A stretch of DNA of 64,000 nucleotides from Candidatus Omnitrophota bacterium. Lineage in GTDB: Bacteria; Omnitrophota; Gorgyraeia; Gygaellales; Profunditerraquicolaceae. The stretch is from positions 9,155 to 73,154 of the forward strand of contig JALOQJ010000001.1 in assembly GCA_025453445.1 (NCBI GenBank), in the 5' to 3' direction. Position numbers and translations under genes: made by a program. Positions 55,965 to 60,622 of the stretch are shown here, one piece after another; within the stretch, counting starts at the first letter, position 1, and every line of letters begins with the position of its first letter. The notes beneath the pieces are model-generated. The model saw only the letters and a program-made list of their open reading frames with translations, made no database searches and had not been told where the DNA came from.

Positions 55965-56035
55965 GTCATTGCGAGGGCGATAGCCCGAAGCAATCCCGGA
56001 ATTCAGAGATTGCTTCGCCTTCGGCTCGCAATGAC
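55965..56035. repeat. Nested inverted-repeat element (family 2, copy 2) in the pheS-pheT gap
   Basis: GTCATTGCGAGGGCGATAGCCCGAAGCAATC...GATTGCTTCGCCTTCGGCTCGCAATGAC. Confidence 0.55.
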
Positions 56036-56045
56036 GGTGGAACAG

Positions 56046-58073
56046 ATGAAATTTACTTATAATTGGCTGAAAGATTTTCTAGATTTAAAAATTTCCGCTG
56101 CTGAGCTGGCTGAAAAACTTACCATGGCCGGCTTGGAAGTAACATCTTTAGAAGAGCGCGCAGGGGATTTTATTTTTGAGGTGGAAATTACTTCCAATCG
56201 CCCTGATTGGCTGAGTGTAATCGGTATAGCCCGGGAAGTAGCAGCGATTACAAATTCAAAACTAAGAACGCAAGGCACAAAATCAAAACTCAAAGTTCAA
56301 AACAAAAGCCAGGCGTTCAAAATAAACATTGAGGATAAAAAAGATTGCCCGTTATATACGCTAAAAATTATTCAAGGCGTCAATGTCGGGCCATCTCCGG
56401 ATTGGCTGAAAAATAGGCTGGAATTAATCGGCTGCCGCAGCGTCAACAATATAGTGGATATTACCAATTATGTTTTGTTTGAAACCGGCGAGCCATTGCA
56501 TGCTTTTGATCTGGATAAATTGGCTCCCGGTGCAATCAGCGTCAGGCGGGCAAAGAAGGATGAGAAACTTACAACTATAGATGCAGCGCAAAGAGTGCTG
56601 AATCAGGAAATTCTAGTGATTGCTGACGGGCAAAAAGCGCTGGCAGCTGCCGGGATTATGGGCGGCAAAGGCAGCGAAGTAAGCTACGCTACAAAAAATA
56701 TTCTTTTAGAGGCGGCGATTTTTCATCCGGTGGTTATCCGCAGGGCAAGGCAGATGCTCGGGCTGCAGACTGATTCGTCATACCGCTTTGAGAGAGGAAT
56801 TGACGCCGAAACTGTCCGCAGTGCTTCTTTACGGGCTACACAGCTGATTACAGAATTATCCGGAGGGAAATGTGTTAGCGCGATAGAATCAGGCAGTGCG
56901 AAAATCAGCAAAAAAACCGTCTCTTTTGATATGCAGAGAATGAATAAGTTTTTAGGTTCAAAAATTCCTGCGGTAAAAATAAAAAATATTTTATCGCATC
57001 TTGGGTTTCAGATACGCTCAAAAAGTCAATATGTTTTAACGGCTGTTGTTCCTCCTTGGCGGGCAGATGTGAGCCTGGAAGTCGATTTAATCGAGGAGGT
57101 ATCGCGCATTTTTGGCTACGAACATATACCGTCCAGTTTGCCTGAGGTAAAGCCGCAAGTAAATATCAATACCCCGCGGGATTTGGTTGTTTTAATAAAA
57201 AATACACTGGTTAGCCTCGGACTGAATGAGGTGATTACTTACAGCCTGATAGACCGCGATTGGCTGAAAGATTTTAATTTATCCGTAGTGCAGCCGGTAG
57301 AAGTCCAGAATCCTTTGAGCAAAGAGCAGGAAATTTTACGGCCTAGTATTGTGCCTTCTTTGGCGCGGGTAGTAGCATTTAATTTAAACCGCAAACAAAA
57401 TTATCTGAATATTTTTGAAGTAAGCAAGGTATTTTGCGCTGGCAAGCCGGACCCTAACGAAGATTTGGTTTTAGGTATTGCTCTTTGCGGAGAAAAAGCA
57501 ATGCTTTTAAATCAGGGGATGGTCAGAGAAGAATTAAATCTCCTGCATTTGAAAGGAATAATCGAAAGTGTCTTAAAAGGGTTAGGCATTTCAGGATATA
57601 GCTTTAATCTGGGCAGCGGGCACACCATTATTTTGGAAAAAGATAATCAACAGCTAGGTACATTGGGGCAATTACCGCCGCGGGTATTAGGGAATTTAGA
57701 TATAAAAAATAAAGAAGTAGTAGCTGCGGAAATTAATCTTAAGAAAATTTTTCCATTGGTAAACTTGCACAAAAAATTTATCAGCCTGCCAACATATCCG
57801 GGGATTACCCGGGATATCAGCCTGTTGCTGAAAAACGGAATTAAAATCGAGGATGTTTTATGCGCAATCCGCAAGCAGGCAGAGCCGTTGTTGAAAGAAG
57901 CAGCTGTGGTGGATTTTTATAAAGGGAAACAAATTCCTTCCGGCCATAAAGGCCTGACGATTTCTTGCCTTTATCGTTCAGATACACGCACGCTTACTGA
58001 AGAAGAAGTAAATCCGTTACATGCCGCGATTTTAGCGGTTTTGCAGGAAAAATTCAACGCGCAGTTGAGATAA
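56046..58073 (+). CDS. pheT: Phenylalanine--tRNA ligase beta subunit
   Basis: MKFTYNWLKDFLDL N-terminus, with B3/4, B5 and FDX-ACB domain order. Confidence 0.9.
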   Translation: MKFTYNWLKDFLDLKISAAELAEKLTMAGLEVTSLEERAGDFIFEVEITSNRPDWLSVIGIAREVAAITNSKLRTQGTKSKLKVQNKSQAFKINIEDKKDCPLYTLKIIQGVNVGPSPDWLKNRLELIGCRSVNNIVDITNYVLFETGEPLHAFDLDKLAPGAISVRRAKKDEKLTTIDAAQRVLNQEILVIADGQKALAAAGIMGGKGSEVSYATKNILLEAAIFHPVVIRRARQMLGLQTDSSYRFERGIDAETVRSASLRATQLITELSGGKCVSAIESGSAKISKKTVSFDMQRMNKFLGSKIPAVKIKNILSHLGFQIRSKSQYVLTAVVPPWRADVSLEVDLIEEVSRIFGYEHIPSSLPEVKPQVNINTPRDLVVLIKNTLVSLGLNEVITYSLIDRDWLKDFNLSVVQPVEVQNPLSKEQEILRPSIVPSLARVVAFNLNRKQNYLNIFEVSKVFCAGKPDPNEDLVLGIALCGEKAMLLNQGMVREELNLLHLKGIIESVLKGLGISGYSFNLGSGHTIILEKDNQQLGTLGQLPPRVLGNLDIKNKEVVAAEINLKKIFPLVNLHKKFISLPTYPGITRDISLLLKNGIKIEDVLCAIRKQAEPLLKEAAVVDFYKGKQIPSGHKGLTISCLYRSDTRTLTEEEVNPLHAAILAVLQEKFNAQLR

Positions 58074-58097
58074 TTTTGCTCGTGCGCCTAACCGGCA

Positions 58098-58125
58098 TTG
58101 ACTTCTCTTGAAAATGTGTTATACT
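58098..58125 (+). promoter_or_regulatory. Sigma70-type promoter with extended -10
   Basis: TTGACT, 16 nt, TGtTATACT. Confidence 0.6.
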
Positions 58126-58132
58126 TTTTTTG

Positions 58133-58320
58133 TAAAGAGACAGTTATTTGATATAAATTCCCTGCAGTGCCCGTTAGGAAATAGATGATTGGTGATCCAA
58201 CACCAAAATCAAGGGGGTCACATGCTTCTTTAGCGCTTCGGCTCTAGAGAGACGACTCCCACCTGAATCCAAGTAGGTTCAGCCAATCATGTCCAACGGC
58301 ACAGGCGGGGATTTTTTTTA
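58133..58320 (+). ncRNA. ssrS: Structured small RNA, candidate 6S RNA (SsrS)
   Basis: About 180 nt between the promoter and a GGCGGGG+U8 terminator. The ends pair (CCCUGC.../...GCGGGG, AUGAUUGG/CCAAUCAU). The 3' side of a central bubble carries the internal hairpin CACCUGAAUCCAAGUAGGUUCAG, which resembles the E. coli 6S CACCUUGAACCAAGGGUUCAAGG. The 5' bubble strand is A/C-rich and unpaired. The apical stem is capped by a UUCG loop. Confidence 0.45.
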
Positions 58321-58333
58321 ATGAGCGCATAAC

Positions 58334-59656
58334 ATGCCCAATCCTACCGACTTATTTCATGAATCCAAACCAGAGAATATCAAAGATCTGCCTCTTGCTG
58401 TGCGTATGCGGCCAAGCTCGCTCGATGATTTTATCGGCCAAGAGCATATTATCGGGAAAAATAAATTACTCCGCCGGGCAATCGAAGCAGACAGGGTAAG
58501 TTCATTAATTTTATTCGGCCCTCCGGGAGTAGGTAAAACTTCTCTTGCTTGGTGTATTGCCAATGTCACCAAGGCCAATTATGCTGCTATTAACGCTACG
58601 ACCTCTAATGTTGAAGAGCTGAGAAAAGCTATTCAGCGTGCCAAACAAATCAAAGCCAATTCCGGCAAGAAAACAATTCTTTTTATCGACGAGATTCACC
58701 GTTTCAACAAAGCTCAGCAGGATGTTTTATTGCCTGATGTAGAAGAAGGAAATCCTATTCTTATCGGAGCAACTGTGCATAATCCATTTTTTTCACTCGC
58801 TGCTCCGCTTTTATCGCGATCGCTAGTCTGTGAATTAAAAACTTTAAAAGAAAAAGAAGTGCTATCAATATTGAATGCTGCTTTAAAAGATAAAACCAGG
58901 GGCCTGGGAAATCTGGATATCAAAGCAGAAAAAAAGGCTTTGGAATTTTTGGCAAAAATCTGCGAAGGGGATGCCCGCCGGGCGCTGAATGCATTGGAAG
59001 TGGGAGCCTTAACTACCCCGCCGCAAAAAGACGGGACAATTAAATTTGATTTAGAAGTAGCTGCCGAGTCAATCCAGAAAAAACCCGTGATCTATGATCA
59101 CGACGAAGACGGCCATTATGATACTGCTTCGGCATTTATAAAATCTATGCGCGGCTCTGATCCTGATGCTGCAATATATTGGATGGCAAAGATGCTTTAT
59201 GCCGGTGAGGATCCGCGTTTTATTGCCCGCAGGATTTGTATTCTGGCAGCAGAGGATGTGGGCAATGCTGATCCTTTGGCAATAGTTTTAGCTAATGCTG
59301 CATTGCAGATTTCTGAATTTGTCGGCATGCCTGAGGCGCGTATTCCGCTGGCACAGGCATGTATTTATGTATCTTGTGCGCCCAAGTCTAATGCCAGTTA
59401 TCTGGCAATTGATAAAGCTTTGCAGGATATTGAAAGTAATAAAGTGCAGGAAGTGCCGGATCATTTGAAAGACGGTACTCTGGACGGAGATGTTCTTGGC
59501 CACGGGAAAGATTATAAATATGCCCATGATTTTCCCGGCCACCACGTCAAGCAAAAATATACCCGTAAAAAAGTCCGCTACTATGAACCCACTGACATTG
59601 GCCACGAAGCGAAAATCAAACAAAGATTAGAGCAGTTGCGAAATAGCGAAGAATAA
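58334..59656 (+). CDS. rarA: Replication-associated recombination protein A (AAA+ ATPase)
   Basis: Walker A GPPGVGKTS and the conserved MgsA C-terminal region. Confidence 0.9.
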   Translation: MPNPTDLFHESKPENIKDLPLAVRMRPSSLDDFIGQEHIIGKNKLLRRAIEADRVSSLILFGPPGVGKTSLAWCIANVTKANYAAINATTSNVEELRKAIQRAKQIKANSGKKTILFIDEIHRFNKAQQDVLLPDVEEGNPILIGATVHNPFFSLAAPLLSRSLVCELKTLKEKEVLSILNAALKDKTRGLGNLDIKAEKKALEFLAKICEGDARRALNALEVGALTTPPQKDGTIKFDLEVAAESIQKKPVIYDHDEDGHYDTASAFIKSMRGSDPDAAIYWMAKMLYAGEDPRFIARRICILAAEDVGNADPLAIVLANAALQISEFVGMPEARIPLAQACIYVSCAPKSNASYLAIDKALQDIESNKVQEVPDHLKDGTLDGDVLGHGKDYKYAHDFPGHHVKQKYTRKKVRYYEPTDIGHEAKIKQRLEQLRNSEE

Positions 59657-59983: not shown

Positions 59984-60220
59984 ATGACGACGACAATTGT
60001 AACTACAAAAGGACAGATTGTGATACCCTCAAAGATCCGCCGAAGGCTCAATATCAAAAAAGGCACAAAATTATATATTGAGGAAAGAGGGGATGAGTTG
60101 ATTCTAAAGGCAGTTACTCCTGCTTATTTCGAGAAGATAGCAGGTGTTCTACAGACCAAAGGAAAATTATCCAAAGCGCTGGTTGAAGAGCGCACCAGGG
60201 AAAAAGAAAGAGAGGCTTAA
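59984..60220 (+). CDS. AbrB/MazE/SpoVT-family antitoxin (VapB-like)
   Basis: 78 aa; swapped-hairpin motif KGQIVIPSKIRRRLNIKKGTKLYIEERGDELILKA. Confidence 0.75.
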   Translation: MTTTIVTTKGQIVIPSKIRRRLNIKKGTKLYIEERGDELILKAVTPAYFEKIAGVLQTKGKLSKALVEERTREKEREA

Positions 60221-60223
60221 TCT

Positions 60224-60622
60224 ATGACAAGGATTATTGATGCTCATGGCCTCTTAGTTTTCTTGGAAAAAGAGGCTGGTTACGAAAAGGTGGAGCAATA
60301 TTTTATTTCTGCAACAGAGAAAGAGAAACAATTATTAATGGCTTCTGTGAATTTTGGAGAAGTATATTATATTGTCTTACGTGAATGTGGCCAAGAGAAA
60401 GCCCATGAAATAGAAAAAATAATCAGGACTTTACCTATCGCCATAGTTGATGTAGATATGCAGCTTGCTAGAGAAGCCGCTCGTTTTAAAGCCAGTCACA
60501 AAATATCATATGCTGACTGTTTTGCCGCCGCCTTAGCAAAGCTGCACAAAGGCGAAGTTATAACAGGAGATAAAGAGTTTAAAACAATAGAACAAGAGGT
60601 AAAAATCGCATGGATAGCCTAG
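60224..60622 (+). CDS. PIN-domain toxin (VapC-like)
   Basis: 132 aa with acidic residues in PIN positions: IIDAH, SYADCFAAALA, ITGDKEF. Confidence 0.75.
   Translation: MTRIIDAHGLLVFLEKEAGYEKVEQYFISATEKEKQLLMASVNFGEVYYIVLRECGQEKAHEIEKIIRTLPIAIVDVDMQLAREAARFKASHKISYADCFAAALAKLHKGEVITGDKEFKTIEQEVKIAWIA

Follow-up and report, generated by a model that had tools for sequence, protein, structure and literature searches.

Evidence for a canonical 6S RNA gene between pheT and rarA in a Candidatus Omnitrophota bacterium

Results

The pheT-rarA interval

We analyzed a 64,000-nt stretch of DNA from a Candidatus Omnitrophota bacterium (the window) and examined the interval between two genes on its + strand. 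The interval is preceded by pheS and pheT, the latter (phenylalanine--tRNA ligase beta subunit; 56010-58073, + strand; TIGR00472, E 7.5e-187) being the conserved upstream neighbor. It is followed by rarA (replication-associated recombination protein A, an AAA+ ATPase; 58334-59656, + strand; NCBIfam PRK13341-type, E 1.9e-164). Read from a TTG start, the pheT product has 687 aa, and its match to the bacterial PheT profile is limited to positions 159-798; judged from this sequence, it seems to be without the N-terminal tRNA-binding domain. Relatives align to it from about residue 3-13, so the shortened N-terminus looks like a lineage feature. Beyond rarA are a gene for a small AbrB-family protein (59984-60220) and two ORFs, 60224-60622 (132 aa) and 60610-62970 (786 aa), that gave no NCBIfam match.

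The region 58098-58320 begins with a near-consensus promoter, present where an earlier note on this DNA had placed it: a -35 hexamer TTGACT (58098-58103, + strand), a 16-nt spacer, TG at 58117-58118 and TATACT at 58120-58125, the last two forming the extended -10 TGtTATACT (58117-58125, + strand). It scored 10/12 and was the top promoter-like site within 57800-58600. Scans for promoter consensus sequences generally yield false positives. In relatives TTGAyT stands in the same place and the -10 is kept as TGTGCTATACT or TATAAT, the shared pattern being TTGAyT-N16-18-TGTGCTATACT.

With a start inferred 7 nt past the -10, the transcript would open with a predicted 5' leader (58132-58155, + strand) that is unpaired in the minimum free energy (MFE) fold and is presumably trimmed off. 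Relatives fall into two spacing classes, in which the -10 ends either 22-32 nt or 3-4 nt before the 5' end of the structured RNA. In the first class, to which the window belongs, this spacing points to trimming of a short leader; in the second, transcription would begin at the mature 5' end. We also considered pairing between the leader (58132-58155) and the spacer downstream of the RNA and rejected it, as just three A-U pairs lengthen the closing stem.

Match to the 6S RNA family

6S RNA is a small RNA that mimics an open promoter and sequesters bacterial RNA polymerase; it is a textbook RNA, near-universal among bacteria. The earlier note had described the RNA in the interval as 6S-like and proposed a cmsearch with the Rfam 6S model, and that search was positive. 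RF00013 (6S/SsrS) matched 58156-58315 on the + strand over its full length (model positions 1-187) with 61.9 bits, above the gathering score of 46.4, and an E value of 7.6e-10 in the 64-kb window. At gathering thresholds, an Rfam 15 scan of the whole window returned this match and seven tRNAs, nothing more, and a more permissive search, at E<=1 over 57900-58500, found no family besides RF00013. The gene body (58156-58315, + strand) is taken as the RF00013 match; a lineage covariance model, R1, gave it 139.1 bits (23 bits on the reverse strand). With RF00013 the score is modest beside the 139.8 bits of E. coli ssrS, and the apical arm is truncated, 10 nt replacing 37 model positions.

To place the match in context, we fetched 80 related loci via the RarA protein from contigs representing one genome per species; the nearest of them belong to Candidatus Omnitrophota metagenome-assembled genomes (MAGs) whose RarA is 75-83% identical. 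Among the 40 closest relatives, Rfam 6S scored above threshold directly upstream of rarA and on the same strand in 29, with 16 among the first 20 loci and 13 among the second 20. The best score in that syntenic slot was 113.7 bits. R1 found 6S RNA upstream of rarA, on the strand of that gene, in 66 of the 80 loci, among them Verrucomicrobiota, Planctomycetota and Methylomirabilota MAGs. Its reverse-strand scores were about 100 bits lower, so the strand of the RNA is not in doubt. The remaining 14 rarA loci had neither an R1 nor an Rfam 6S match. In most Omnitrophota loci pheT lies upstream of the 6S RNA.

Several sequence signatures of 6S RNA are kept in the homologues: CCCUGC...GUG.CG; UGAnCCAAC with a start pyrimidine and A; CCCACCUG; GGUUCA; and ACGGCA...GCGGGG. 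These bear on whether the RNA could be some other RNA-polymerase-binding or structured small RNA (Ms1-like, or a novel rod) that is 6S-like just in being a long imperfect hairpin. The match exceeds the gathering threshold by only 15 bits and has a short apical arm, and long imperfect hairpins score somewhat by shape alone, as the R1 reverse-strand matches of 18-50 bits show. Such an RNA would not, however, be expected to carry conserved, sequence-specific 6S signatures, nor to occupy a slot in which relatives reach the Rfam scores given above, and no other family came up in the permissive scan. We regard this reading as a remote one.

Two loci in the set were unusual. In a close relative (L001:2836-2969) the 6S RNA is just 134 nt long and has no distal apical hairpin, but its Rfam score is still 60.4 bits; it is either a natural minimal 6S RNA or an assembly deletion. 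A Verrucomicrobiae MAG with no 6S RNA upstream of rarA carries, about 800 nt ahead of that gene, an Acido-Lenti-1 RNA (L080:2151-2197; RF01687; 48.4 bits, gathering score 37).

Fold and covariation

Folding of 58133-58320 gave an MFE of -63.7 kcal/mol (z = -4.33), a stability that not one of 200 dinucleotide shuffles reached. For comparative analysis we used a MAFFT alignment of the window and 23 homologues (A1; n = 24) that was not fitted to structure. Run on the plain MAFFT alignment, RNAalifold recovered the closing stem but no other part of the fold and added two short helices that were spurious, so the canonical and alternative structures were placed on A1 columns by hand and their pairs were then counted. 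The canonical 6S fold paired 88.4% of cells, compared with 37-47% when the 3' partners were slid by 1-3 columns, and showed compensatory changes at 15 pairs. On none of five measures were the observed values matched by any of 500 column shuffles. Covariation backs the closing stem, helix P2 and the base of the apical arm, upholding the 6S rod of closing stem, P2, large central bubble and apical arm.

The closing stem pairs 58157-58178 with 58292-58313 (both + strand). Complementarity of the two ends over more than 25 nt had been suggested; the stem is real, but it amounts to about 19 pairs spanning 22 nt per strand. Among the 24 sequences 89-95% of its cells were paired and 8 pairs showed compensatory change. 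Helix P2, the downstream helix, joins a 5' strand UUGGUGAUCC (58189-58198, + strand; from the Rfam alignment), which is also the pRNA template, to a 3' strand GGUUCAGCCAA (58276-58286, + strand; from the Rfam alignment and A1) and was 82% paired in A1. GGUUCA in its 3' strand is nearly invariant among homologues. One mismatch, U58196 against U58278, is specific to the window, which reads GAUCC where relatives read GAACC and form an A-U pair.

The central bubble has a 5' strand AACACCAAAAUCAA (58199-58212, + strand), unpaired in the Rfam consensus, and a 3' strand ACCUGAAUCCAAGUA (58261-58275, + strand; Rfam alignment) that forms the '-10-like' side and contains the conserved CCCACCUG. All of UGAUCCAACACCAAAAUCAA (58193-58212) had originally been taken for an unpaired strand; its AACACCAAAAUCAA portion does lie in the bubble, but its first six bases, UGAUCC, belong in the canonical fold to the 5' strand of P2. 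The apical (internal) arm (58213-58260, + strand; MFE fold) is shorter than that of E. coli. Its base was 86% paired with 4 compensatory pairs in A1, and the predicted UUCG tetraloop caps it as C(UUCG)G at 58236-58241. The apical loop sequence is not conserved across relatives.

That the whole might be a chance intergenic structure next to a fortuitous promoter-like match draws only on the general caveat about consensus scans. The z-score of -4.33 and the Rfam E value of 7.6e-10 speak against it, and conservation and covariation across 66 genomes already refute it; we assign it a negligible probability.

The central region has a second fold. The MFE structure prefers two central hairpins, UUGGUG/CACCAA (58189-58206) and CUGAAUC/GGUUCAG (58263-58282), to P2. 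The first, a 5'-strand hairpin UUGGUG-AUCCAA-CACCAA (58189-58206, + strand; seen in the MFE fold and A1), competes with P2. It occupies A1 columns 36-53, where 76% of cells were paired and 4 of its 6 pairs showed compensatory (double) changes, and its conserved loop AnCCAA contains the pRNA start region. Ensemble calculations covering 47 homologues put P2 close in energy to the two-hairpin fold, with the 3' hairpin beating P2 in 16 of the 47, the window included. For the free window RNA we obtained P(P2) = 0.20 and P(hairpin) = 0.72, a leaning that is partly due to the U-U mismatch in P2. From these models, the free 6S RNA of this clade appears to be bistable between an open-bubble and a two-hairpin fold, both of them covarying. 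Since the free RNA of the window is predicted to favor the two-hairpin fold, the polymerase would have to impose the open-bubble form.

Predicted pRNA start site and release hairpin

In E. coli, pRNA synthesis starts at U44, beside the conserved A45 (PMC9670815). When annotated E. coli ssrS was aligned to RF00013, U44 and A45 fell on model positions 45/46, which in the window are C58201 and A58202; we therefore predict 58201-58202 (+ strand) as the start-site template and its adjacent conserved A. The start base was C or U in 46 of 47 homologues and was followed by A in 45. GG stood at pRNA positions 4/5 in 41. A start pyrimidine and GG at positions 4/5 or 5/6 are among the hallmarks of pRNAs (PMC8414754). 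The window has both: its start base is a pyrimidine, and its predicted pRNA, 5'-GUUGGAUCACC... (in longer form 5'-GUUGGAUCACCAAUC), has GG at 4/5.

Release in E. coli follows when the lower strand of the downstream helix is copied and the upper strand forms a hairpin with the -10-like region (PMC9670815). A mini-hairpin in the 3' strand, CACCUGAAUCCAAGUAGGUUCAG (58260-58282), had been singled out in the earlier note for its likeness to the E. coli element, and this comparison held up well. The predicted release hairpin CUGAAUC-CAAGUA-GGUUCAG (58263-58282, + strand) is built from the 3' bubble strand and the P2 3' strand, and the MFE fold contains its CUGAAUC/GGUUCAG stem of 7 bp. When the template was constrained to stay single-stranded, imitating bound pRNA, the hairpin formed with P = 0.99, compared with 0.26 when the 3' bubble strand was shuffled; the value of 0.99 was common to the window and its close relatives. 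Under the same constraint P was at least 0.5 in 18 of 47 homologues and in none of 47 controls. In silico, then, the RNA has a refolding element of the 6S kind.

Distant homologues have a shorter hairpin of the ACCUG/CAGGU type instead. On the MAFFT alignment the 3' hairpin was only 69.7% paired, a figure lowered by gaps misplaced in the hairpin loop; since these made its support look poor, we replaced the pair count with per-sequence ensemble calculations. A hairpin of 3' bubble and P2 has been described as the gamma-proteobacterial release element, B. subtilis 6S-1 using a collapse helix instead (PMC8876501).

The 3' end and the junction with rarA

At the 3' end GGCGGGG (58304-58310) is followed by U8 (58312-58319, + strand), as the earlier note had it, with one A between them. 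We interpret the U-run, from the sequence and from relatives, as a probable (leaky) termination or 3'-end signal. A run of at least five U ends the 6S RNA in 50 of 66 homologues; in those without one, either a classical hairpin terminator stands slightly further downstream, by a few bases (L047, L049, L057, L071), or the RNA runs directly into the rarA start (L009, L035, L056). A terminator scan found no intrinsic terminator hairpin on the + strand. We rejected GGCGGGG plus U8 as a classical local hairpin terminator given this negative scan and the place of the G-tract in the 3' strand of the closing stem. With no local hairpin, the entire 6S rod would have to act as the terminator stem, and efficient termination at U8 is not assured.

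The proposal of a terminator 14 nt before the rarA ATG, with no Shine-Dalgarno (SD) sequence, thus stands as regards the spacing and the absence of a GGAG-type SD, but not as regards a local terminator hairpin. Roughly counted, a 4-mer SD is missing from about half of the window's long ORFs, so its absence before rarA is unremarkable. The 14-nt spacer, AAUGAGCGCAUAAC (58320-58333, + strand), is filled by a mini-ORF of three codons (ATG AGC GCA TAA, 58321-58332) whose stop codon falls 1 nt short of the rarA ATG; this may be a coincidence, or it may bear on SD-less initiation of rarA.

The spacer is the remnant of a longer structured spacer in relatives. In eight of them it measures 107-208 nt (L010:2793-3000, L016:2851-2997, L012:2031-2163, L011:2859-2997, L006:2844-2997, L008:2814-2932, L026:2238-2344, L043:2866-2997) and opens with a conserved long hairpin, UUGAGGCCACAACUUACGG...CGUAAGUUGUnUGGCCGAA, in which 10 of 19 predicted pairs show compensatory changes. 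A second hairpin comes next and ends in GGAUAAC. The window (58320-58333) retains the ends alone, AAUGAGCGC...AUAAC. The hairpin element matched no Rfam family; candidate roles are those of a processing site, a terminator and a part of the rarA 5'-UTR.

The promoter scan found no promoter-like site in 58126-58333, the stretch from the end of the 6S promoter to the rarA ATG. With no promoter of its own there, rarA, which begins on the same strand 14 nt past the U-run, is most likely read through the 6S gene, and the two are probably co-transcribed. In many relatives the gap between 6S and rarA is 2-35 nt, and in L005, L028, L038, L062 and L067 the ATG lies 2-4 nt past the end of the RNA.

In three further loci (L009:2829-3010, L035:2841-3010, L056:2812-3010) the closing stem abuts the rarA start codon without a U-run, so that rarA there must be transcribed through 6S. 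In L009 the pheT stop lies 7 nt before the 6S RNA and no promoter was seen; the 6S RNA there must derive from pheST read-through. In L009, pheST, 6S and rarA must make up one transcript from which 6S is excised.

Such a close attachment raises the question whether the RNA is mainly a cis-acting leader or attenuator of rarA, its closing stem and U8 serving as a regulated terminator that would control the amount of polymerase passing into rarA, with no role in trans. This had been the alternative in the earlier note. The 14-nt spacing with no intervening promoter, the loci in which the ATG follows within 2-4 nt, those in which rarA must be transcribed through the RNA and the two competing, covarying folds of the central region would all suit a leader. 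The competing folds are, however, confined to P2 and the bubble; the closing stem is 89-95% paired and has no conserved competitor, so they offer no terminator/antiterminator alternative.

Nor is the attachment constant, for the RNA lies 1238 nt (L073) and 1518 nt (L057) from rarA in two loci, has a classical hairpin terminator of its own downstream in the four loci named above and is missing from 14 of the 80 rarA loci. In Lactobacillales, 6S RNA is found downstream of rarA (PMC8414754). A leader would also leave unexplained the full-length Rfam 6S match with its conserved pRNA start site. We give a purely cis-acting role very little credence, and a rarA leader is unlikely to be the primary identity of this RNA; what survives of the idea is that transcription of rarA very probably passes through the 6S gene.

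Discussion

We conclude with high confidence that the region 58098-58320 is the ssrS gene of this Candidatus Omnitrophota bacterium and encodes a canonical 6S RNA. The analysis establishes membership in the family, the fold, its conservation, the synteny with rarA and the positional equivalence of the pRNA start site. The full-length RF00013 match, the synteny, the covariation and the start-site equivalence bear out the 6S-like identity that had first been proposed for the RNA.

By homology with E. coli and B. subtilis we infer polymerase binding, pRNA synthesis, processing and read-through, and the following model can be drawn. A strong sigma-70-type promoter (58098-58125) would give a transcript of about 188 nt, and trimming of the leader would leave a rod-shaped RNA of about 160-165 nt with closing stem, helix P2, central bubble and apical arm. 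Conservation of the promoter and of the U-run fits a discrete, abundant transcript of about 160-200 nt. The rod would mimic an open promoter and fill the active site of the housekeeping RNA polymerase holoenzyme, and this occupancy would dampen transcription when nutrients are scarce. Once NTPs return, the polymerase would use the 6S RNA as template, starting with GTP opposite C58201 and making the short pRNA 5'-GUUGGAUCACCAAUC. Copying of the P2 5' strand would free GGUUCAG to pair with CUGAAUC in the 7-bp hairpin at 58263-58282, and formation of this hairpin would eject sigma and release the polymerase, as in E. coli. The gene would end with the closing stem and then U8, and rarA, 14 nt on and without its own promoter, would most likely be expressed by read-through. 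6S and rarA would then be a dual-function transcription unit in the style of E. coli ssrS-ygfA.

As a discovery, the 6S RNA of the window carries little weight: it is already known in kind, and a curated model detects this copy at default settings. Its value lies in annotation, in that an uncultured Omnitrophota genome gains its ssrS gene, for which the promoter, the ends and the start and sequence of the pRNA are predicted.

The neighborhood adds a modest point of comparison. Linkage between 6S RNA and rarA is known from Lactobacillales and from B. subtilis 6S-1 (PMC8414754). Here it recurs in another arrangement: in genomes of Omnitrophota and the PVC group, pheT, 6S and rarA follow one another in the same direction, often abutting, and this recurrence strengthens the case that the linkage is functional, not accidental. 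In the literature searched, which the two main 6S surveys lie outside, we found neither a co-directional pheT-6S-rarA arrangement in Omnitrophota/PVC genomes nor any paper pairing '6S RNA' with 'Omnitrophica'; a search on 6S RNA in Verrucomicrobia and Planctomycetes gave nothing relevant.

A bolder reading, which we offer tentatively and consider rather doubtful, is that 6S-rarA is an obligatory dual-function unit from Omnitrophota into Verrucomicrobiota, Planctomycetota and Methylomirabilota, with rarA expressed only via read-through or processing at the 6S 3' end. If so, some genomes, with the AUG 2-4 nt past the 6S end, would have a nearly leaderless rarA mRNA. Taken with the linkage in Firmicutes, it would also suggest that the sequestration of RNA polymerase and a rescue factor for replication forks share a functional coupling of ancient origin.

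Among known systems, the RNA of the window resembles E. coli 6S (SsrS) in its rod architecture and model positions, in the equivalent pRNA start position with its adjacent conserved A, and in a release hairpin made from the 3' bubble strand and the 3' strand of the downstream helix (CACCUGAAUCCAAGUAGGUUCAG in the window, CACCUUGAACCAAGGGUUCAAGG in E. coli). In both, a protein gene follows on the same strand within about 20 nt (20 nt in E. coli, where ssrS is co-transcribed with the downstream ygfA; PMC2848244). The window RNA is shorter, 160 nt compared with 184 nt, its apical arm is much reduced, and its release hairpin has 7 bp, not 9 bp. Its start base is C, predicting initiation with GTP, whereas E. 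coli has U and initiates with ATP. The downstream gene is rarA and not that for 5-formyl-THF cyclo-ligase (ygfA/fau), and the U8 run at the 3' end is a feature of the window unlike E. coli.

The RNA also has parallels with B. subtilis 6S-1 (BsrA), whose pRNA is 5'-GUUCGGUCAAAACUA (PMC12005410). The predicted window pRNA is G-initiated and very similar (GUUGGAUCACC compared with GUUCGGUCAAA), although GG stands at positions 4/5 in the window and 5/6 in B. subtilis. As in the window, the 6S RNAs of B. subtilis (6S-1) and Lactobacillales are linked to rarA in the genome (PMC8414754) and can form a small 3'-bubble hairpin in the free RNA (PMC8876501). The Firmicutes gene order is the reverse, with rarA upstream of 6S (in B. 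subtilis in opposite orientation) and both genes regarded as monocistronic; in the window, 6S immediately precedes rarA on the same strand and the two are probably co-transcribed. Finally, where B. subtilis 6S-1 has a 'central bubble collapse helix', the window RNA is predicted to have the extended hairpin of the E. coli type.
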